Sequence record: ON210139.1
Length of the DNA: 64,000 nucleotides
Source: Escherichia phage EC128
Strand: one strand, 5' to 3'
The notes under the pieces are model-generated. The model did no database searches. It was not told the DNA's origin and was given only the letters and a program-made list of their open reading frames with translations. Within the stretch, counting starts at the first letter, position 1, and each line of letters starts with the position of its first letter. The position numbers and the translations under genes were made by a program. Below, one piece after another: positions 11 to 60,943 of the stretch.

Positions 11-2188
11 ATGATTATCACCACTGAAAAAGAAACAATTCTTGGTAATGGTTCTAAATCAAAAGCATTTAGCATCACAGCATCTCCTAAAGTATTTAAA
101 ATTCTGTCATCTGATTTGTATACAAACAAGATTCGCGCAGTAGTCCGTGAATTGATTACTAACATGATTGATGCCCATGCTCTCAATGGAAATCCTGAAA
201 AATTTATCATTCAAGTTCCAGGACGATTAGATCCGCGATTTGTTTGTCGAGATTTTGGTCCGGGTATGAGTGATTTTGATATTCAGGGTGATGATAATTC
301 TCCTGGGTTGTATAATTCATACTTCAGTTCATCTAAAGCTGAATCTAATGACTTTATTGGCGGATTTGGTTTAGGTTCTAAATCTCCGTTTAGTTATACT
401 GATACGTTTAGTATTACTTCTTATTATAAAGGTGAAATTCGTGGTTATGTAGCTTACATGGATGGTGATGGTCCACAGATTAAACCTACATTCGTAAAAG
501 AAATGGGTCCAGATGATAAAACTGGTATTGAAATCGTAGTTCCAGTTGAAGAAAAAGACTTTAGAAACTTTGCTTATGAAGTTTCTTATATCATGCGACC
601 GTTCAAAGATTTGGCTATCATTAATGGTCTTGACCGCGAAATTGATTATTTTCCGGATTTCGATGATTATTATGGCGTAAATCCAGAAAGATACTGGCCT
701 GATCGTGGTGGATTGTATGCTATCTACGGCGGTATTGTTTATCCTATCGATGGTGTTATTAGAGACCGTAACTGGCTAAGCATTCGCAATGAAGTGAATT
801 ACATTAAGTTTCCAATGGGTTCACTTGATATTGCTCCATCTCGCGAGGCTCTTTCACTGGATGATCGTACTCGTAAAAATATTATTGAACGAGTTAAAGA
901 ACTCAGTGAGAAAGCATTTAATGAAGATGTAAAACGATTTAAAGAATCTACATCTCCTCGTCATACATATCGTGAATTGATGAAGATGGGGTATTCTGCT
1001 CGAGATTATATGATTAGTAATTCAGTCAAATTCACGACTAAAAATCTGTCATATAAAAAGATGCAGAGCATGTTTGAACCTGATAGTAAGTTATGCAATG
1101 CAGGAGTTGTGTATGAAGTAAATCTTGACCCTCGGCTGAAACGTATTAAGCAAAGCCATGAAACTTCAGCCGTTGCATCAAGCTATCGTCTGTTTGGTAT
1201 TAATACAACAAAAATTAATATCGTTATTGATGATATTAAAAATCGTGTTAATATTGTCCGTGGATTAGCACATGCGTTAGATGATAGTGAATTTAATAAC
1301 ACTTTAAATATTCATCATAACGAACGCCTTCTGTTTATTAACCCAGAAGTAGAATCGCAGATTGATTTACTTCCTGATATTATGGCGATGTTTGAAAGTG
1401 ATGAAGTTAACATTCATTATTTGTCAGAAATTGAAGCTTTAGTTAAAAGCTATATTCCAAAGGTAGTTAAAAGTAAAGCTCCTCGTCCTAAAGCTGCTAC
1501 AGCATTTAAGTTTGAAATTAAAGACGGGCGCTGGGAAAAAGAGGAACTATTTACACTTACGTCAGAAGCAGATGAAATTACTGGTTATGTAGCGTATATG
1601 CATCGTTCTGATATTTTCTCTATGGATGGTACTACATCTCTTTGTCATCCATCTATGAATATTTTGATTCGTATGGCTAATCTTATTGGCATTAATGAAT
1701 TTTATGTTATTCGTCCGCTTTTACAGAAAAAGGTAAAAGAACTCGGTCAGTGCCAATGTATTTTTGAAGCTTTGCGTGATTTATATGTAGATGCTTTTGA
1801 TGATGTAGATTATGATAAGTATGTAGGTTATTCAAGTTCAGCTCAACGATATATTGATAAAATTATCAAGTATCCTGAACTAGATTTTATGATGAAGTAC
1901 TTCAGTACAGATGAAGTTTCTGAAGAATATACACGACTCGCTAATATAGTTAGTTCATTGCGCGGTGTATATTTTAATGGTGGAAAAGATACCATCGGTC
2001 ATGACATCTGGACAGTAACTAATCTTTTTGATGTATTATCAAATAATGCTTCAAAAAACAGTGATAAAATGGTTGCTGAGTTTACCAAGAAATTCCGTAT
2101 TGTTTCCGACTTCATCGGTTATCGCAACTCTTTAAGTGATGATGAAGTTTCCCAAATCGCTAAAACTATGAAGGCCCTTGCGGCCTAA
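11..2188 (+). CDS. rIIA: rIIA protein (rapid-lysis / Rex-exclusion phenotype)
   Basis: 725-aa ORF preceded by SD GAGGAAATT; sequence and length recognised as T-even rIIA. Confidence 0.95.
2045..2070 (+). promoter_or_regulatory. candidate MotA-dependent middle promoter inside the rIIA 3' end, reading into rIIB
   Basis: MotA-box-like AATGCTTCA followed 11 nt later by TAAAAT. Confidence 0.3.
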
Positions 2189-26789: not shown

Positions 26790-27149
26790 ATGGCGGAAAA
26801 TATGAATTTTAATTATTACCCTATTCTATTAGAAAAAGACGCGAAACAGCCAAAATGGCAAGGTCCTCAGTTTATTAAAGGTGTCTATCAATTAGTAGTT
26901 CCTAAAGACAAGATTTATAGTAGCTGTTTCACTGAATCCGCTTGCAGTATTTTCGGTAATAGTTCTCCGTATTGGAATTTTGACATAAAGCTGGATAGAA
27001 ATATCGATATTTGGTTGAAAGCTATGGATATTGGTAATATCACGTTTGATGAGAATAATTATCATATTATTGGTCGTTTTTCCAAACGCGGTAAAGAATT
27101 ATATTTCACGCCTGAAATTGAAAGAAAATTTGATGCTAAACCGTATTGA
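26790..27149 (+). CDS. hypothetical protein (115-119 aa) encoded on an insertion between frd and td
   Basis: ORF (best start probably ATG 26802 with GGCGGAAAAT) in a ~415-bp segment flanked by direct repeats AAATGAAA (26776-26783 and 27193-27200). Confidence 0.5.
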   Translation: MAENMNFNYYPILLEKDAKQPKWQGPQFIKGVYQLVVPKDKIYSSCFTESACSIFGNSSPYWNFDIKLDRNIDIWLKAMDIGNITFDENNYHIIGRFSKRGKELYFTPEIERKFDAKPY

Positions 27150-27194
27150 TTATTCAGCTTCATAAAATGTATTATAATTTATATAAGGTACTAA

Positions 27195-27743
27195 ATGAAA
27201 CAATACCAAGATTTAATTAAAGACATTTTTGAAAATGGTTATGAAACTGATGACCGAACGGGCACAGGAACAATTGCTTTGTTCGGTACTAAATTACGCT
27301 GGGATTTAACTAAAGGTTTTCCTGCAGTAACAACTAAGAAGCTCGCCTGGAATGCATGTATTTCTGAGTTATTGTGGTTCTTATCAGGAAGTACTAACGT
27401 AAATGATTTGCGATTAATTCAACATAATTCATTAATTCAAGGCAAAACAGTCTGGGATGAAAATTACGAAAATCAAGCAAAAGATTTAGGATACCATAGC
27501 GGTGAACTTGGTCCAATTTATGGAAAACAGTGGCGTGATTTTGGCGGTGTAGACCAAATTATAGAAGTTATTGATCGTATTAAAAAATTGCCAAATGATA
27601 GGCGTCAAATTGTTTCAGCATGGAATCCAGCTGAACTCAAGCAGATGGCATTACCGCCTTGTCATATGTTCTATCAGTTTAATGTGCGTAATGGCTATTT
27701 GGATTTGCAGTGGTATCAACGATCAGTAGATGTTTTCTTGGGT
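27195..27743 (+). CDS. td: thymidylate synthase, exon 1 (codons 1-183)
   Basis: MKQYQDLIKDIFENGYETDDRTG...; frame closes in the intron just after GGT at 27743. Confidence 0.9.
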
Positions 27744-28759
27744 TAATTGAGGCCTGAGTATAAGGTGACTTATACTTGTAATCTATCTAAACGGGGAACC
27801 TCTCTAGTAGACAATCCCGTGCTAAATTGTAGGACTGCCCTTTAATAAATACTTCTATATTTAAAGAGGTATTTATGAAAAGCGGAATTTATCAGATTAA
27901 AAATACTTTAAACAATAAAGTATATGTAGGAAGTGCTAAAGATTTTGAAAAGAGATGGAAGAGGCATTTTAAAGATTTAGAAAAAGGATGCCATTCTTCT
28001 ATAAAGCTTCAGAGGTCTTTTAACAAACATGGTAATGTGTTTGAATGTTCTATTTTGGAAGAAATTCCATATGAGAAAGATTTGATTATTGAACGAGAAA
28101 ATTTTTGGATTAAAGAGCTTAATTCTAAAATTAATGGATACAATATTGCTGATGCAACGTTTGGTGATACATGTTCTACGCATCCATTAAAAGAAGAAAT
28201 TATTAAGAAACGTTCTGAAACTGTTAAAGCTAAGATGCTTAAACTTGGACCTGATGGTCGGAAAGCTCTTTACAGTAAACCCGGAAGTAAAAACGGGCGT
28301 TGGAATCCAGAAACCCATAAGTTTTGTAAGTGCGGTGTTCGCATACAAACTTCTGCTTATACTTGTAGTAAATGCAGAAATCGTTCAGGTGAAAATAATT
28401 CATTCTTTAATCATAAGCATTCAGACATAACTAAATCTAAAATATCAGAAAAGATGAAAGGTAAAAAGCCTAGTAATATTAAAAAGATTTCATGTGATGG
28501 GGTTATTTTTGATTGTGCAGCAGATGCAGCTAGACATTTTAAAATTTCGTCTGGATTAGTTACTTATCGTGTAAAATCTGATAAATGGAATTGGTTCTAC
28601 ATAAATGCCTAACGACTATCCCTTTGGGGAGTAGGGTCAAGTGACTCGAAACGATAGACAACTTGCTTTAACAAGTTGGAGATATAGTCTGATCTGCATG
28701 GTGACATGCAGCTGGATATAATTCCGGGGTAAGATTAACGACCTTATCTGAACATAATG
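27744..28759 (+). mobile_element. td group I self-splicing intron (1016 nt) carrying the I-TevI homing endonuclease gene
   Basis: starts TAATTGAGGCCTGAGTATAAGGTGACTTATAC after exon-terminal T and ends ...ACATAATG with terminal G; joining the exons gives an in-frame 286-aa thymidylate synthase. Confidence 0.85.
27875..28612 (+). CDS. I-TevI: I-TevI GIY-YIG homing endonuclease (intron-encoded)
   Basis: 245-aa ORF inside the td intron; N-terminal GIYQIKN...VYVGS GIY-YIG motif. Confidence 0.95.
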   Translation: MKSGIYQIKNTLNNKVYVGSAKDFEKRWKRHFKDLEKGCHSSIKLQRSFNKHGNVFECSILEEIPYEKDLIIERENFWIKELNSKINGYNIADATFGDTCSTHPLKEEIIKKRSETVKAKMLKLGPDGRKALYSKPGSKNGRWNPETHKFCKCGVRIQTSAYTCSKCRNRSGENNSFFNHKHSDITKSKISEKMKGKKPSNIKKISCDGVIFDCAADAARHFKISSGLVTYRVKSDKWNWFYINA

Positions 28760-29071
28760 CTTCCATTTAATATTGCATCATATGCTACGTTAGTTCATAT
28801 TGTAGCTAAGATGTGTAATCTTATCCCAGGAGATTTGATATTTTCTGGTGGTAATACTCACATCTATATGAATCATACTGAGCAATGTAAAGAAATTTTA
28901 CGTCGTGAGCCTAAAGAACTGTGTGAACTTAAAATTGATTGGCCTATAGAGTTTGGAAATTGTGACACCGAAACACAGCTTTACTGGTTAACTGAATACA
29001 TGAAACCGAAAGATTTTATCCTTGAAAATTATGAATCGCATCCAGCAATTAAAGGGAAAATGGCAATATGA
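28760..29071 (+). CDS. td: thymidylate synthase, exon 2 (codons 184-286)
   Basis: continues [19 protein letters not shown]... in frame with exon 1 after intron removal. Confidence 0.85.
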
Positions 29072-29331
29072 TTTTACGATTTAAAGATACTTCTGGCGTT
29101 GTTCTTTTTACACTTCCTAACCCAAGCGAGTTAGAAGTTCCAGGACCAGAACAGCCTATTACCATTTATGGTAAAAAATACTATACTCATAAAATGACTC
29201 GTGAGTATTTTGATAATAAAATTTCCACAGTTAAAACTTCTTCCGATTGTTACTATGATATTACTGTATTAACGGAAAAACAATATGACGAATTATTCCA
29301 GCGTGGGCCGTCTATGCCGGGTAGTGAATAA
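29068..29331 (+). CDS. hypothetical protein (87 aa)
   Basis: ORF overlapping the td stop (ATGA). Confidence 0.5.
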
Positions 29332-29611
29332 ATACAAATCCGACTTTGATGTTAATATTCACCGCGGTACATTTTGGGGAAATTACGTCGGTAAAGATGC
29401 TGGCAGCCGGGAGGCTGCCATTGAATTATTCAAAAAAGATTTTATACGTCGAATTAAATCCGGAGAAATAACTAAAGCACATTTAGAGCCTTTACGTGGA
29501 ATGAGGCTAGGATGCACATGTAAACCAAAGCCGTGTCATGGTGATATAATAGCTCATATAGTTAACCGATTGTTTAAAGACGATTTTCAAGTTGAGGACT
29601 TATGCAATTAA
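29285..29611 (+). CDS. hypothetical protein (108 aa) with a cysteine/histidine cluster
   Basis: ORF ending at the nrdA start; [11 protein letters not shown] motif. Confidence 0.45.
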
Positions 29612-31866
29612 TTAATGTTATCAAAAGTAGTGGTGTTTCTCAGAGCTTTGACCCGCAAAAAATTATTAAAGTTTTATCTTGGGCAGCTGAAGGAACATCA
29701 GTAGATCCTTATGAATTATATGAAAATATTAAATCTTATCTCCGTGATGGAATGACAACTGATGATATTCAGACTATTGTCATTAAGGCCGCTGCGAATT
29801 CTATTTCGGTTGAAGAGCCTGATTATCAATATGTAGCTGCACGCTGTTTAATGTTTGCTCTTCGTAAGCATGTTTATGGACAGTATGAACCACGTTCATT
29901 TATTGACCATATTTCTTATTGTGTAAATGAAGGTAAATACGACCCTGAATTATTGTCAAAATATTCAGCAGAAGAAATTACATTTTTAGAATCAAAAATT
30001 AAGCACGAACGGGATATGGAATTTACTTATTCCGGGGCGATGCAATTAAAAGAAAAATATCTAGTTAAAGATAAAACCACTGGTCAAATTTATGAAACTC
30101 CACAGTTTGCATTTATGGCTATTGGAATGGCATTGCATCAAGATGAACCTGTTGATAGATTAAAACATGTTATCCGTTTTTATGAAGCAGTATCAACCCG
30201 ACAGATTTCATTGCCAACTCCTATTATGGCTGGTTGTCGTACTCCGACTCGACAGTTCAGTTCATGTGTTGTTATTGAGGCAGGTGATTCATTAAAGTCT
30301 ATCAATAAGGCTTCCGCTTCAATTGTTGAATATATCTCTAAACGCGCTGGAATTGGTATTAACGTTGGTATGATTCGTGCTGAAGGTTCTAAGATTGGCA
30401 TGGGTGAAGTACGCCATACTGGTGTTATTCCTTTTTGGAAACATTTTCAGACTGCTGTTAAATCATGCTCACAGGGTGGAATTCGTGGCGGCGCTGCTAC
30501 TGCTTATTATCCTATTTGGCATTTGGAAGTTGAAAATCTTCTCGTTTTGAAAAATAACAAAGGCGTAGAAGAAAACCGCATTCGTCACATGGATTATGGT
30601 GTTCAGCTGAATGATCTAATGATGGAACGATTCGGAAAGAACGATTACATTACTTTGTTCAGTCCACATGAAATGGGTGGCGAGCTTTATTATTCTTATT
30701 TTAAAGATCAAGACCGTTTCCGTGAATTATACGAAGCAGCAGAAAAAGACCCTAATATTCGTAAAAAGCGTATTAAAGCCCGTGAACTATTTGAATTGCT
30801 CATGACTGAACGTTCAGGAACAGCAAGGATTTATGTGCAGTTCATTGATAATACGAATAACTATACTCCGTTTATTCGTGAAAAGGCACCTATTCGTCAG
30901 AGTAACTTGTGCTGTGAAATTGCTATTCCAACAAATGATGTGAATAGCCCTGATGCTGAAATTGGATTGTGCACGTTATCTGCATTTGTGCTGGATAACT
31001 TCGATTGGCAAGACCAAGATAAAATTAATGAATTAGCAGAAGTTCAAGTTCGCGCTCTTGATAATCTGTTGGATTACCAAGGATATCCAGTTCCTGAAGC
31101 AGAAAAAGCTAAAAAGCGTCGTAACCTTGGTGTAGGTGTTACTAACTATGCAGCTTGGCTGGCAAGTAACTTTGCTTCTTATGAAGATGCTAACGATTTA
31201 ACACATGAACTATTTGAGAGATTACAGTATGGACTCATTAAAGCATCCATTAAGCTCGCCAAAGAAAAAGGACCTTGCGAATATTATTCAGACACTCGTT
31301 GGTCTCGAGGCGAATTACCTATCGACTGGTACAATAAAAAGATTAACCAAATCGCAGCTCCAAAATACGTTTGTGACTGGTCGGCGCTGCGGGAAGACCT
31401 TAAGCTCTTTGGCATCCGTAATAGCACATTATCAGCACTTATGCCATGTGAGTCATCTTCCCAAGTTTCTAACAGTACAAACGGTATCGAGCCTCCACGT
31501 GGACCAGTCTCTGTTAAAGAATCAAAAGAGGGCTCCTTTAATCAAGTCGTGCCCAATATTGAGCATAACATAGACCTTTACGACTATACATGGAAATTAG
31601 CTAAGAAAGGTAATAAACCTTATCTTACGCAGGTAGCTATTATGCTGAAATGGGTATGTCAATCAGCTTCGGCGAATACATATTATGACCCGCAGATTTT
31701 TCCAAAAGGAAAGGTTCCAATGTCAATAATGATTGATGACATGCTATACGGATGGTATTATGGCATTAAAAATTTCTATTATCATAATACCCGTGATGGT
31801 TCTGGTACTGATGATTATGAAATAGAAACTCCAAAAGCTGAAGATTGTTCATCCTGTAAATTATGA
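29602..31866 (+). CDS. nrdA: aerobic ribonucleotide reductase large subunit
   Basis: 754-aa ORF; recognised as T4 NrdA. Confidence 0.95.
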   Translation: MQLINVIKSSGVSQSFDPQKIIKVLSWAAEGTSVDPYELYENIKSYLRDGMTTDDIQTIVIKAAANSISVEEPDYQYVAARCLMFALRKHVYGQYEPRSFIDHISYCVNEGKYDPELLSKYSAEEITFLESKIKHERDMEFTYSGAMQLKEKYLVKDKTTGQIYETPQFAFMAIGMALHQDEPVDRLKHVIRFYEAVSTRQISLPTPIMAGCRTPTRQFSSCVVIEAGDSLKSINKASASIVEYISKRAGIGINVGMIRAEGSKIGMGEVRHTGVIPFWKHFQTAVKSCSQGGIRGGAATAYYPIWHLEVENLLVLKNNKGVEENRIRHMDYGVQLNDLMMERFGKNDYITLFSPHEMGGELYYSYFKDQDRFRELYEAAEKDPNIRKKRIKARELFELLMTERSGTARIYVQFIDNTNNYTPFIREKAPIRQSNLCCEIAIPTNDVNSPDAEIGLCTLSAFVLDNFDWQDQDKINELAEVQVRALDNLLDYQGYPVPEAEKAKKRRNLGVGVTNYAAWLASNFASYEDANDLTHELFERLQYGLIKASIKLAKEKGPCEYYSDTRWSRGELPIDWYNKKINQIAAPKYVCDWSALREDLKLFGIRNSTLSALMPCESSSQVSNSTNGIEPPRGPVSVKESKEGSFNQVVPNIEHNIDLYDYTWKLAKKGNKPYLTQVAIMLKWVCQSASANTYYDPQIFPKGKVPMSIMIDDMLYGWYYGIKNFYYHNTRDGSGTDDYEIETPKAEDCSSCKL

Positions 31867-31917
31867 TATAATTTGACTCATGGACGAGTCACTAACTATT
31901 AACTAAGAGGAAAATTT

Positions 31918-32593
31918 ATGAGCACAGTTTTTAATACAAATCCAGTTGATGTTTTAAAAGAACCTATGTTTTTTGGTTCAGGTCTTGGTATTGCGCGTTA
32001 TGATATTCAACGGCATCGAGTATTTGAAGAACTTACAGAGAAGTCCTTATCATTTTTCTGGCGTCCCGAAGAAGTAAACTTAATGATGGATGCTGCACAG
32101 TTTAATAAGCTTCCTCAGTATCAGCAGAATATTTTTACTAACAACCTGAAGTATCAATCACTTTTGGATAGCATTCAGGGTCGTGCACCGTCTGCTGTAC
32201 TTATGTCATTAATTTCAGACCCAAGCCTTGATACATGGGTTGCTACATGGACTTTTAGTGAAACTATTCACTCTCGTTCGTATACTCATATTATGCGAAA
32301 TCTTTATACCGATCCATCGAAGGTATTTGATGAAATTGTATTAGATGAAGCTATTATGAAACGAGCTGAATCCATTGGACGTTATTATGATGATGTCTTG
32401 GTTAAAACCCGTGAATGGGAAAATGCTAAAGAATTTGTAGAACTAGCTAAAGAATCTCCTGATGCCGACTTTCGTTTAAACCGAGCTATTAAACAAGAAG
32501 CCGAAGCTAAACGTGCTTTAATGAAGTCTCTTTACCTCTGTTTACACGTTATTAATGCCTTAGAAGCTATTCGTTTTTATGTATCTTTTGCGT
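31918..32593 (+). CDS. nrdB: ribonucleotide reductase small subunit, exon 1
   Basis: MSTVFNTNPVD...ALEAIRFYVSFA; frame closes immediately inside the intron; 5' splice site inferred after T 32593. Confidence 0.75.
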
Positions 32594-33684
32594 AAAATGC
32601 GCCTTTAAACGGTAACGTTTATCGAAAACTCCTTTAATTGCTGGAAAGTCCTTTATAGGAAAACTAGCAGCCAAGGTTTTGCTTGCACCTTTAATTAGTA
32701 TAATATAAATATGATTATACTTTTAAGAGGATGCACAATTGAACTATAGAAAAATTTGGATAGATGCTAACGGACCTATACCTAAAGATTCTGATGGAAG
32801 AACATACGAAATCCATCATAAAGACGGTAACCGTGAAAATAATGATTTAGATAATTTGATGTGCCTTTCTATACAGGAACATTATGATATACATTTAGCT
32901 CAAAAAGATTACCAGGCTTGTCATGCTATAAAGCTTAGAATGAAATATTCTCCTAAAGAAATTTCTGAATTAGCTTCTAAAGCCGCAAAATCTAGAGAAA
33001 TCCAGATTTTTAATATCCCTGAAGTACGAGCTAAAAATATTGCCTCTATTAAATCTAAGATAGAAAATGGTACATTTCATCTTTTAGACGGTGAAATACA
33101 GCGTAAATCTAATTTAAATAGAGTTGCATTAGGTATACATAATTTTCAACAAGCTGAGCATATTGCAAAAGTTAAAGAACGCAATATTGCAGCTATAAAA
33201 GAAGGTACTCATGTATTTTGCGGTGGTAAAATGCAGTCAGAAACTCAATCAAAACGGGTAAATGACGGTTCACATCATTTCTTGTCAGAAGATCATAAGA
33301 AAAGAACATCAGCAAAAACATTAGAAATGGTTAAGAACGGGACCCATCCTGCACAAAAAGAAATCACATGTGATTTCTGCGGTCACATTGGTAAAGGTCC
33401 TGGATTTTATCTAAAACATAATGACAGATGTAAATTAAATCCAAATAGAATTCAATTGAATTGTCCATATTGTGATAAGAAAGATTTATCACCATCAACA
33501 TATAAACGATGGCACGGCGACAATTGCAAAGCAAGGTTCAACGACTAGTCTTCGGACGTAGGGTCAAGCGACTCGAAATGGGGAGAATCCCTCTGGGATT
33601 GTGATATAGTCTGGTCTGCATAGTAATATGTAGCAGTTCATAAGAGAACGGGTTGAGAATTAGCGAGCTCAATCGAACATAACG
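32594..33684 (+). mobile_element. nrdB group I intron (about 1.09 kb) carrying a full-length HNH endonuclease ORF
   Basis: interrupts the conserved FYVSFAC/TFNFHKNMEIMEGNAKI region; the proposed junctions (exon ends T, intron ends G) restore an in-frame NrdB; exact boundaries are inferred. Confidence 0.6.
32739..33548 (+). CDS. I-TevIII: I-TevIII-like HNH homing endonuclease (intron-encoded, full length)
   Basis: 269-aa ORF; HNH motif EIHHKDGNRENNDLDNLMCLSIQEHYDIH and C-terminal Cys clusters; opens at TTG 32739 with SD AAGAGGA 7 nt upstream, no in-frame ATG. Confidence 0.75.
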   Translation: MNYRKIWIDANGPIPKDSDGRTYEIHHKDGNRENNDLDNLMCLSIQEHYDIHLAQKDYQACHAIKLRMKYSPKEISELASKAAKSREIQIFNIPEVRAKNIASIKSKIENGTFHLLDGEIQRKSNLNRVALGIHNFQQAEHIAKVKERNIAAIKEGTHVFCGGKMQSETQSKRVNDGSHHFLSEDHKKRTSAKTLEMVKNGTHPAQKEITCDFCGHIGKGPGFYLKHNDRCKLNPNRIQLNCPYCDKKDLSPSTYKRWHGDNCKARFND

Positions 33685-34187
33685 GTACCTTTAACTTCCA
33701 CAAGAATATGGAAATCATGGAAGGTAATGCCAAGATTATGAAGTTCATTGCACGTGATGAGCAGCTTCACCTTAAAGGCACTCAATATATTATTCGTCAA
33801 CTTCAATCCGGTACTGATGGTGATGAATGGGTTAAAATTGCTCAAGAGTGTGAACAAGAAGCAGTTGATATTTTCATGGAAGTTAACCGCCAAGAAAAAG
33901 ATTGGGCAGTTCATTTATTTAAAGATGGCGATGTTCCTGGATTAAATACAAATAGCATGTGGAGCTTTATTGATTACTTAACTGTATCTCGTATGAAACA
34001 GTGTGGTCTTCCATGCCCAATTACCGATGCTCCGGTTAAACACCCATATCCTTGGATTCGTGAATATCTTAATTCTGATAATGTTCAATCCGCGCCACAA
34101 GAAGTAGAACTGTCATCTTACCTTGTTGCGCAGATTGATAATGATGTTGATGATAAAGTTATGATGAGTTTTAAAAAATACTTTTAA
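33685..34187 (+). CDS. nrdB: ribonucleotide reductase small subunit, exon 2
   Basis: in-frame continuation (C)TFNFHKNMEIMEGNAKIMKFIARDEQLH... through the stop. Confidence 0.65.
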
Positions 34188-34214
34188 GGAGTGGGCCGCA
34201 AGGCCCATTTTATT

Positions 34215-35802
<1,588 letters not shown>

Positions 35803-35805
35803 GCT

Positions 35806-35835
35806 GTTTACAAGTCCCTCGTGTTGTGTTACAGT
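35806..35835 (+). promoter_or_regulatory. early promoter for alc; part of a 54-bp promoter and leader repeat
   Basis: GTTTAC, 18-bp spacer, TACAGT; near-identical copy at 49909. Confidence 0.5.
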
Positions 35836-35866
35836 AGTCTTACTGACATAACATGAGGACTTTATG

Positions 35867-36370
35867 ATGGATTTGCAGCTTATTACTACTGAGATGGTCG
35901 TTGAAGCATACGGTGATACTACAGATGGGATTTCTGTATTCAAAGGAAATCGTCGAGTTGGATATATCACTGATCTTAAGAAAGATTTAGCTAAGCAAGT
36001 TAAGCGGAAAACGACCGTTAAAGAATATCGAAATCGTCGTCTTGAGAAAGCCCGTGATATGCTTCCTAATGCAGTTGAGGAGATGAAAGTCTTTTTAGAA
36101 AATCAACTCGTTAAGTATGATTGTGAAGTGTTCATTAATCAGACTCAACCTAATGTTCATATTAACAACTGTAAATGCTATATCATCGTTAATCCTTTGA
36201 CAGGAAAACATCGTCTTGGAATTAGTAATCCAAATCGTAGCGCATCAGATATGGCAGAAGATGTTGAGGCATGCTTTAAAATTTCTAAATCTCCGGCTGA
36301 ACATCATATTTTAATTAACGGTCTTTCTCAAGACGATATTATAGAGGTTATTAAAACTTTATGCAATTAA
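35867..36370 (+). CDS. alc: Alc protein (blocks host transcription on cytosine DNA)
   Basis: 167 aa from the second ATG of MMDLQLITTEMV. Confidence 0.85.
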   Translation: MDLQLITTEMVVEAYGDTTDGISVFKGNRRVGYITDLKKDLAKQVKRKTTVKEYRNRRLEKARDMLPNAVEEMKVFLENQLVKYDCEVFINQTQPNVHINNCKCYIIVNPLTGKHRLGISNPNRSASDMAEDVEACFKISKSPAEHHILINGLSQDDIIEVIKTLCN

Positions 36371-58814: not shown

Positions 58815-60323
58815 TTATAAATTAACTGTTTTCATTACGTAATTAAATTTTTCATCTGCGTAGCGCTGAATACGATCAATGCCGTGTTTTAAAAGATAGT
58901 TCAAATGAACATATTTCTTTTTCGTATTAGCAGATTTTGGCTTAACGCCCGCGTCATCTATAAGATCCCAGACTGTTGCTATTGTCTTAGAACCATGCTT
59001 ACGTAATACACGACCGATTGTTTGTAATACAATGATTTTTGATTTAACACCGTGCGCTAAAACAACGTGATGTAGATTTTTAACTGAAATACCAGTAGAA
59101 AATACACCATAACTAGCTACTATAATTATTCCTTTACCATTTTCAGCTAAGGTTTTCATTATATTGCGGGTTTCGGTATCAACTTCCCCTGATACGTAAT
59201 AAACTTTATCGTATTCATTTTTAATTAAATCGAAAATAGCTTTACCATGCGATACATGTTTAAACATGACAAAAGCGTTTTCATCTTTTTGTGCAAGCTT
59301 AATAGCTAATTTAGCGATCCATTTATTTCTTTTACTGAGCCCAGTAATAATTTTTATTTCTTCTTGGTAAGTTTTTCCCTTTAATTTAGTAGTGAACTCA
59401 TCGGGATAGCGAAGAAAAATACTATTAATTTTTAACTCAGTTACTTGTCCATCTTCCATTAATTTAGAGGTCGTTACTGGCTTAAATATTTCACCAAACA
59501 TTCCAACATACTGCATGATATTGGCTTTGCCATCACGTAATGAACCAGATAGACCAAATTTAAACATACAGTTATTTAAACCTGATATGATAGATGAAAT
59601 ACTTTTTCCTGTAGCAAGATGGCATTCATCATTCATCATCATTCCAAACTGTGAGAACCATTCTTTTGGTTGTTTAACTACAGTTTGCCATGTACCAACA
59701 ACGACTGGTGCATCATTTTTATATTTATCATCTTTTGATGCTCCGCCACCAATTTTCTTTATCATTGCATGGCTGAATAAACGATAGTCGACGAAGTCAT
59801 CAGCCATCTGAGTTGTCAGAGCAGTTGTTGGAACAATGATAAGAATTTTACCTTCATAATTTTCCAAATAATACCGCGCAAGCAAAGCTTGAATTAAAGA
59901 TTTACCTGCAGATGTTGGAAGATTAAGAATTCTACGACGATTAACTAATCCTTCGAACACTGCATCTTTTTGATACCAATGCGGTTCAATTCTTTTATTT
60001 CCTGAATAGATTTCTAATTTAGAAAGCCATTCATCAAAATCTTTTCTTGATAATTCTTCTTTTTCGTTAATCTGTGGGTCAATCCAGGCTTTATAGCCAA
60101 AGTTATCGCAGAACTTTTTAATTTGCCCGACTAAGCCGAATGGAAGAAGACGATTATAATCTAAAAGACGGATTCGTCCATCCCAGTTGCCATATCTGAA
60201 GCGAGGATTAAACCTATATCCATCGGCCTCAAACGAAAAGAAATCTCTTAATTCGTGGAACGTGCTCTCTTCACAATCGATGCGTACATGGCTGAAGTCG
60301 TGAAAATGTACTTTAATATCCAT
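58815..60323 (-). CDS. uvsW: UvsW DNA/RNA helicase (SF2)
   Basis: 502-aa ORF with helicase motifs (GSGKS-like Walker A, DECH). Confidence 0.9.
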   Translation of the reverse strand: MDIKVHFHDFSHVRIDCEESTFHELRDFFSFEADGYRFNPRFRYGNWDGRIRLLDYNRLLPFGLVGQIKKFCDNFGYKAWIDPQINEKEELSRKDFDEWLSKLEIYSGNKRIEPHWYQKDAVFEGLVNRRRILNLPTSAGKSLIQALLARYYLENYEGKILIIVPTTALTTQMADDFVDYRLFSHAMIKKIGGGASKDDKYKNDAPVVVGTWQTVVKQPKEWFSQFGMMMNDECHLATGKSISSIISGLNNCMFKFGLSGSLRDGKANIMQYVGMFGEIFKPVTTSKLMEDGQVTELKINSIFLRYPDEFTTKLKGKTYQEEIKIITGLSKRNKWIAKLAIKLAQKDENAFVMFKHVSHGKAIFDLIKNEYDKVYYVSGEVDTETRNIMKTLAENGKGIIIVASYGVFSTGISVKNLHHVVLAHGVKSKIIVLQTIGRVLRKHGSKTIATVWDLIDDAGVKPKSANTKKKYVHLNYLLKHGIDRIQRYADEKFNYVMKTVNL

Positions 60324-60325
60324 AA

Positions 60326-60943
60326 TTATGCCTTACTAAATTTGCCTTTAGAATCTCTTTTCATGAGACGACCTTTAATAAATCCGTCGGGAATAATACC
60401 GTCTGGTTGTATTAATTTATTTATTGCACCGTTATTGACCCAAAAAGTTCCTGTGGTAGTCGGTTTGACTTTACATCCTTTTCTGGACTTTCTATTAGGA
60501 TGAACCATTCCTTTTACAAATCCTTCTGGAACAAGTTCTCCAGGTTTAATAAAAATATTTTTAGTTCCATTGGTGTAACAAGTTGTACCTAATACCGTGC
60601 CCGGTGAGTTTTCAAATCTCTTAGCGGAAGATTCTTTCATCTTTGCTATAACCTCTGTAGTCATAACAATTCCACCAATTCCACCAGGTTTCATATTATA
60701 ATAATTTTTGCTTTTTATTATTTCAGGAGTTATAATTTCTTCTTCATACATGTACGCTTCTTCGGAAGTTTTAAACTCTTTTAGTATTGTTCTAGAGAAA
60801 TTGTTTTCACCATATTTCTTTATAGCCTGCTGAATTGCCTTACCGGAACCAAGGTAACCATCATTCAAGTCATCAGTAGAGTGTTTTCCTATATACTTTT
60901 TACCGTTTATTAGATTTGTTGTTTCATATACAAAGTGGTACAT
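60326..60943 (-). CDS. segE: freestanding GIY-YIG homing endonuclease (SegE-like)
   Basis: 205 aa; N-terminal YHFVYETTNLINGKKYIGKHS GIY-YIG motif; lies between uvsW and inh. Confidence 0.6.
   Translation of the reverse strand: MYHFVYETTNLINGKKYIGKHSTDDLNDGYLGSGKAIQQAIKKYGENNFSRTILKEFKTSEEAYMYEEEIITPEIIKSKNYYNMKPGGIGGIVMTTEVIAKMKESSAKRFENSPGTVLGTTCYTNGTKNIFIKPGELVPEGFVKGMVHPNRKSRKGCKVKPTTTGTFWVNNGAINKLIQPDGIIPDGFIKGRLMKRDSKGKFSKA

Follow-up and report, generated by a model that had tools for sequence, protein, structure and literature searches.

The nrdB gene of Escherichia phage EC128 is interrupted in the stretch that we analyzed (64,000 nt of record ON210139.1; here, the window), and the interruption is very likely an RB3-type full-length group I intron carrying the endonuclease I-TevIII, in a T4-like phage (Tequatrovirus). 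This arrangement has long been described and is common, and nothing about it is new. We determined the splice junctions, the RNA structure, the integrity of the open reading frame (ORF), the identity to RB3, and the distribution of the element. In a comparison of 24 kb, RB3 and many other Tequatrovirus genomes share about 96% identity with the window. The features are listed in Table 1.

TABLE 1 Coordinates in the window of the nrdB intron, its ORF, and the neighboring features
Feature	Coordinates	Strand	Basis
I-TevI ORF in the td gene, full-length, 245 aa	27875..28612	+	Pfam
td exon 2	about 28757..29071	+	
nrdA, ribonucleotide reductase large subunit, intact, 754 aa	29602..31866	+	ORF list
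nrdA-nrdB spacer, 51 nt, without mobE	31867..31917	+	sequence
nrdB exon 1	31918..32593	+	collinear with intron-less T2 nrdB
P1: exon GCGU 32590-32593 / intron GCGC 32599-32602, loop AAAAU	32590..32602	+	sequence, MFE fold
Group I intron of nrdB, 1,091 nt, ends at G33684	32594..33684	+	RB3 identity, Rfam, structure
MotA-box-like TGCTT	32680-32684	+	sequence
Predicted RNA hairpin sequestering the SD, inner stem AGUAUAAU/AUUAUACU	32684..32735	+	predicted fold
-10 TATAAT	32699-32704	+	sequence
T4 late-promoter TATAAATA	32704-32711	+	sequence
Shine-Dalgarno (SD) AAGAGGA, 7 nt before TTG	32725..32731	+	sequence
I-TevIII ORF, 269 aa, TTG start, HNH and two zinc fingers	32739..33548	+	ORF list, Pfam, motif regular expression
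Segment missing from the T4 intron, 491 nt, frame-shifting	32803..33293	+	alignment with NC_000866
3' catalytic core: P6a', P7, P7.1 (C-UUCG-G hairpin), P7.2, P3', P8, P7', P9, P9.1, P9.2	33522..33684	+	Rfam, MFE, pair counts
nrdB exon 2	33685..34187	+	ORF list, collinear with T2 nrdB
Putative GIY-YIG seg-type endonuclease ORF, 205 aa, MYHFVYETTNLINGKKYIGKH…	60326..60943	-	reading of the ORF

The reading frame of nrdB stops at 32595 and resumes later. Joining the two exons gave an uninterrupted 392-aa NrdB (…FYVSFACTFNFHKNMEIMEGNAK…), and the joined exons aligned without a gap to the intron-less nrdB of T2, with 47 of 50 nt identical over the junction. Therefore, the intervening sequence is 32594..33684 and is 1,091 nt long. 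The original prediction had placed an intron of about 1.09 kb between these same junctions, and both stood. The 5' junction, 32593/32594, reads …TTTTGCGT/AAAATGCG… and the 3' junction, 33684/33685, reads …ACATAACG/GTACCT…; the predicted ligated-exon junction is …UUUUGCGU/GUACCUUU…. The flanking bases differ (exon T and intron A on the 5' side, intron G and exon G on the 3' side), and no alternative placement of the junctions yields an identical spliced product.

We then considered the structure of the intron RNA. Rfam at the gathering threshold returned no match in 27000-36000, and the td intron in that range was missed too. An E-value scan matched RF00028 (Intron_gpI) with 33.9 bits (E 1.2e-6), below the family's gathering score of 50; in this alignment the J6/7-P7-P3'-P8-P7'-P9 portion was convincing and the 5' half was forced onto ORF sequence. 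We tentatively attribute the misses of the nrdB and td introns to their long ORF inserts (here, 833 nt in L6a), and the miss at the gathering threshold is not taken as evidence against the intron. The L6a insert was removed before folding. The unconstrained minimum free energy (MFE) fold of the ORF-deleted intron recovered P1, P4, P5, P6a, P7, P7.2, P8, P9, P9.1, and P9.2, and in it P2 and P3 were mispaired with the 3' end. This mispairing was expected because P3/P7 is a pseudoknot, so we assigned P2 and P3 by hand and checked them by pair counts on an alignment of eight distinct intron variants. The resulting 73-pair structure from P1 to P9.2 had 99.5% of cells paired, versus 34 to 44% when partners were slid by one to three columns; these counts come from eight closely related sequences and a hand-built structure derived from those very sequences. 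Four pairs showed compensatory changes: A-U to G-C and G-C to A-U in P2, U-A to A-U in P5, and A-U to G-C in P9. The core helices P3, P4, P7, and P8 are invariant, so that covariation neither supports nor contradicts them. A C·A mismatch in P6a occurs in three of the variants and is absent from the window.

Folding to find P1 had been proposed as a check with the original prediction, and P1 came out of the MFE fold as expected. The last base of the 5' exon, U32593, forms a U•G wobble with G32599, followed by three further G-C or C-G pairs (32590-32592 with 32600-32602), and all of these pairs are invariant in the eight variants. As read from the sequence, P10 could have at most 2 bp (G33685•U32598 and U33686-A32597). 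The last base of the intron, at the junction fixed by T2 collinearity, is the omega G, G33684. GTP-dependent self-splicing in vitro is established for the T4 nrdB intron.

The intron contains a single long ORF. Its product matched Pfam HNH_3 at residues 4 to 48 (48.7 bits, E 6e-13), and upstream of the TTG the frame is closed by a TAA at 32724, with GAG GAT GCA CAA in between. Thus, the TTG is the only canonical start that retains the HNH motif. The HNH residues H26, H27, N39, and H48, which have been shown to be essential (PMC1865063), are all present at the expected positions. With a regular expression for the CX2CX12-13HX3C zinc-finger motif, as defined in PMC1865063, we found two fingers, at residues 211-231 (C211/C214) and 242-263 (C242/C245). 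Published I-TevIII has 269 aa, a monomer of 30.8 kDa, and a stable fragment of residues 194-269, and it has been mutated at H26A, H27A, N39A, H48A, C211A, C214A, C242A, and C245A (PMC1865063). These residue numbers match the window ORF exactly when counted from the TTG, and the computed mass of the product from the TTG is 30.86 kDa. Because the numbering, the motifs, and the mass match, the TTG-initiated 269-aa protein is the published I-TevIII. We infer from its sequence that the endonuclease would be functional in this phage.

The TTG start and the SD are identical in 11 of 11 relatives, deletion variants included, and the I-TevIII coding sequence (CDS) of RB3 starts at the same TTG both in X59078 (1991; 191..1000) and in KM606994 (2014). 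These results bear out the original prediction of an intact 269-aa HNH ORF that opens at TTG 32739 with an SD 7 nt upstream. Its further statement that the ORF has no in-frame ATG was wrong: in-frame ATGs occur at codons 41, 68, 165, and 197, all of them downstream of H26, H27, and N39. The last nine or so codons and the stop of the ORF overlap the 3' strand of P6a, J6/7, and P7. We also observed a marginal Pfam match to FlgM (anti-sigma-28) in the linker at residues 74-114 (26.3 bits against a cutoff of 25), which is probably a spurious similarity of a helical, lysine-rich linker.

I-TevIII was discovered in phage RB3 (Eddy and Gold 1991, as cited in PMC1865063), and the RB3 intron (X59078, KM606994) is a near match to that of the window. 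The two share the insertion site, the junctions, the 1,091-nt length, the 269-aa ORF with its TTG and SD, the HNH and zinc-finger residues, and the promoter and hairpin region, with 99.7% nucleotide identity. Only 3 of the 1,091 positions differ (32805, 32955, and 33293), all within the ORF, whose DNA is 99.6% identical. The proteins agree at 267 of 269 residues; RB3 has D23 and E73 where the window has Y23 and K73 (Y23D, K73E). K73 is unique to the window among eight full-length copies, and the seven others compared all have E73. RB3 also differs from the window in carrying mobE between nrdA and nrdB. We noted that the 1991 RB3 intron (X59078) is 1,090 nt long, with one base missing from a C run in P8 (equivalent to window 33589), and that this base is present in the 2014 RB3 genome (KM606994) and all other phages (1,091 nt). 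The missing base is most likely an old sequencing error.

Yersinia phage phiD1 (HE956711) has the identical layout, with an intact nrdA, a 51-nt spacer without mobE, a 1,091-nt intron, and an 810-nt ORF. Its nrdA-nrdB junction is 100% identical to the window and its ORF is 99.8% identical, and it differs from the window by one I-TevIII residue (K73E) and by one intron base (32648). In GenBank, the I-TevIII ORF of phiD1 is labeled only "protein of unknown function."

Upstream of the ORF lie promoter elements and a predicted hairpin that correspond to a known regulatory layout and are candidates for such use here. Middle and late promoters upstream of I-TevIII have been described (PMC2988022), and a "predicted middle promoter" annotated in Yersinia phage fPS-2 corresponds in position to 32680-32704. 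In the predicted hairpin, CCUUU at 32688-32692 pairs with the SD core AGAGG at 32726-32730, and the late promoter lies in the loop of the inner stem. The fold of 32676-32770 has an MFE of -16.5 kcal/mol (z = -2.1), and the predicted sequestration of the SD agrees with the description in PMC2988022. A sigma-70 promoter and terminator scan of 31700-34300 gave 16 promoter-like sites against 12.1 ± 3.9 expected and was uninformative; the tool covers sigma-70 promoters and leaves T4 middle and late promoters outside its scope. No paper that mentions "I-TevIII" together with "UUG" was found in the literature searched.

A three-codon mini-ORF, AUG-CAC-AAU-UGA, occupies 32731-32742 (+). Its AUG begins with the final base of the SD, its stop shares 2 nt with the I-TevIII UUG, and it is unchanged in 11 of 11 relatives. 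The mini-ORF may have no significance, or it could serve as a decoy or a coupling device. We regard it as very improbable that the stretch from the SD through this mini-ORF and over the UUG (32725-32742) is a deliberate translational throttle on top of control by the hairpin and the late promoter. If that were true, either a decoy AUG abutting the SD or coupling of the mini-ORF to a weak UUG would hold I-TevIII at subtoxic levels.

Could translation start somewhere other than UUG 32739? Initiation at UUG is weak in E. coli and probably lowers I-TevIII expression further, a view that we take from general knowledge. An internal AUG at codon 41 or later would give a DNA-binding protein without HNH, and the mini-ORF, which is visible in the sequence and conserved, could feed the ORF by termination and reinitiation. 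However, the spacing from the SD is an ideal 7 nt for the UUG and 0 nt for the mini-ORF AUG, the internal ATGs have no good SD in front of them, and a start at codon 41 would lose residues that cleavage requires, namely, H26, H27, and N39 (PMC1865063). In addition, mobility of the RB3 intron depends on I-TevIII (PMC1865063), and therefore RB3 produces a catalytically complete protein in vivo. We consider a start other than the UUG extremely unlikely.

A different objection concerns the enzyme itself, which might be dead or weakened in spite of an intact ORF, for example by K73, leaving the intron immobile as in T4. The restriction of K73 to the window copy speaks for this, as does the frequent decay of intron endonuclease genes seen in four deletion forms (described below). 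However, neither the HNH motif nor the zinc fingers include residue 73, the four catalytic residues are all in place, both zinc-finger motifs are preserved, and the protein is more than 99% identical to the active RB3 enzyme (PMC1865063). An inactive enzyme thus has little to recommend it, and we think it very unlikely; the reading that we prefer is an intact I-TevIII translated from the UUG.

The T4 copy had been predicted to be truncated by deletion, unlike that of the window, and the alignment with NC_000866 agreed. T4 lacks 491 nt plus two single bases, which leaves a 598-nt intron; the deletion takes out the HNH domain and changes the frame, and the 97-aa remnant in the annotation begins at an ATG in another frame, at the equivalent of window 32764. 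PMC1865063 and PMC2790892, both citing Eddy and Gold 1991, describe the same form. T4 shares with the window the insertion site, the RNA core, the TTG/SD region, and the coding part for the C-terminal zinc fingers; it differs in having a defective I-TevIII and in carrying mobE and nrdB.1 between nrdA and nrdB. In T4, mobE mobilizes the defunct intron in trans (PMC2790892). We found at least four deletion forms of the ORF: T4 (598-nt intron), Salmonella phage SG1 (420), Shigella phage ESh36 (587), and Escherichia phage AV109 (592). The RNA core and the TTG/SD region are retained in all four. In AV109 the deletion preserves the frame, and a 101-aa ORF that opens at the same TTG joins the first 22 or so residues to the zinc-finger part.

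A second endonuclease ORF, that of I-TevI, lies in td 4 kb upstream and matched the Pfam GIY-YIG domain, the I-TevI zinc finger, and the I-TevI DNA-binding domain (E down to 3e-32). Thus, the phage carries both the td and the nrdB mobile introns. The td intron is likewise a group I intron in a gene of nucleotide metabolism with its endonuclease ORF looped out of the core, and in T4 its late promoter is combined with a hairpin that sequesters the SD (PMC2988022), as predicted here for the nrdB intron. I-TevI is a GIY-YIG enzyme that acts as a monomer and has an ATG start, whereas I-TevIII is an HNH enzyme, a dimer, and starts at TTG.

Between nrdA and nrdB, the absence of mobE held up as predicted. 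The nrdA gene matches the annotated nrdA of RB3, phiD1, and T2; it ends with its stop codon at 31866 and nrdB opens with the ATG at 31918, so that the two genes are only 51 bp apart in both the sequence and the ORF list, as had been noted. The intergenic region, at this length, holds no endonuclease ORF. In tblastn searches with RB3 MobE and the free-standing HNH endonuclease of HY03 as queries, no homologue turned up between nrdA and nrdB, and none of full length anywhere in the 64-kb window. The spacer holds a TATAAT (31867-31872) and the SD of nrdB (AAGAGGAAA). This TATAAT would fit the middle promoter that has been placed in the nrdA-nrdB region of phages without mobE (PMC2790892). A 351-nt probe across the nrdA-nrdB junction was 100% identical to phiD1, and the junction was contiguous, without an insert, in 409 of the 547 records that matched the probe. 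Therefore, absence of mobE is the majority state in T4-like phages. Because RB3 has an intact I-TevIII and mobE together, the two features are independent and are not alternatives.

We rejected a move of mobE to another place in the window. The sole match of low E value was a similarity of about 43 aa between the C terminus of RB3 MobE and that of the seg-like GIY-YIG ORF at 60326..60943 (tblastn E 5e-6), which suggests that the two may share a DNA-binding module. That ORF adjoins a helicase-like ORF of 502 aa (58815..60323), presumably uvsW. In the segments retrieved from phages e11/2 and fPS-2 (1-588), an endonuclease annotated "MobE" lies just upstream of a shortened, 990-nt nrdA CDS. This "MobE" appears to interrupt nrdA rather than to sit in the nrdA-nrdB spacer; the window nrdA is intact.

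The ORF was present at 80% or more of its length in 84 of the 119 matching phage records, mostly at 98% identity or more, and the remainder were deletion forms. The whole 2,451-nt stretch, from the end of nrdA through the spacer to nrdB with its intron, is one collinear piece in more than 30 of the best 40 records. We rejected an artifact or misassembly on the ground that dozens of independent genomes share the sequence. Copies of the nrdB intron also occur in phages assigned to other genera, in Klebsiella phage EI (Marfavirus), Salmonella phage S16 (Gelderlandvirus), and AV109 (Mosigvirus), which is consistent with horizontal homing. In the EI copy (retrieved segment, about 1501-1520), one extra nucleotide directly behind the TTG (TTGAAACT…) disrupts the frame, and the CDS was annotated from 16 nt downstream; the extra base could reflect either an error in sequencing or a genuine frameshift.

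In several public records, the ORF is labeled "hypothetical protein" or nrdB appears as two separate genes. For annotation, nrdB should be joined at 32593/33685, and the 269-aa ORF should be named I-TevIII with its TTG start. Directly after the nrdB stop, at 34188..34215 (+), there is a GC-rich hairpin with a run of T behind it (GGGCCGCAAGGCCCATTTTATT), overlapping the start region of denA; it is an annotated terminator in fPS-2 and was not reported by our terminator scan. The start of denA differs among public records, which give 435 nt from GTG 34191 (T4 RefSeq, e11/2) or 411 nt from ATG 34215 (RB3, phiD1, T2).

For self-splicing, cleavage, homing, and temporal regulation, we draw on the literature. 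The intron RNA would fold into a group IA-type core and splice itself out at U32593/A32594 and G33684/G33685, restoring the 392-aa NrdB. In read-through transcripts, the SD would be base-paired within the hairpin; the late promoter in the hairpin loop would give transcripts that lack the 5' arm and have a free SD. The ORF would then be translated from the UUG, with expression presumably restricted to late infection, and recombinational repair would copy the intron into the cut allele. The spacer without mobE would represent the commoner state, in which the nrdA-nrdB spacer has not been invaded.

As is already known, the nrdB intron in its wild-type form has an intact endonuclease, laboratory T4 carries a deletion derivative, and mobE and the intron invade the nrd region independently of each other. 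To this the present analysis makes a small descriptive addition, namely, at least four deletion forms of the ORF and copies of the intron in phages assigned to other genera.
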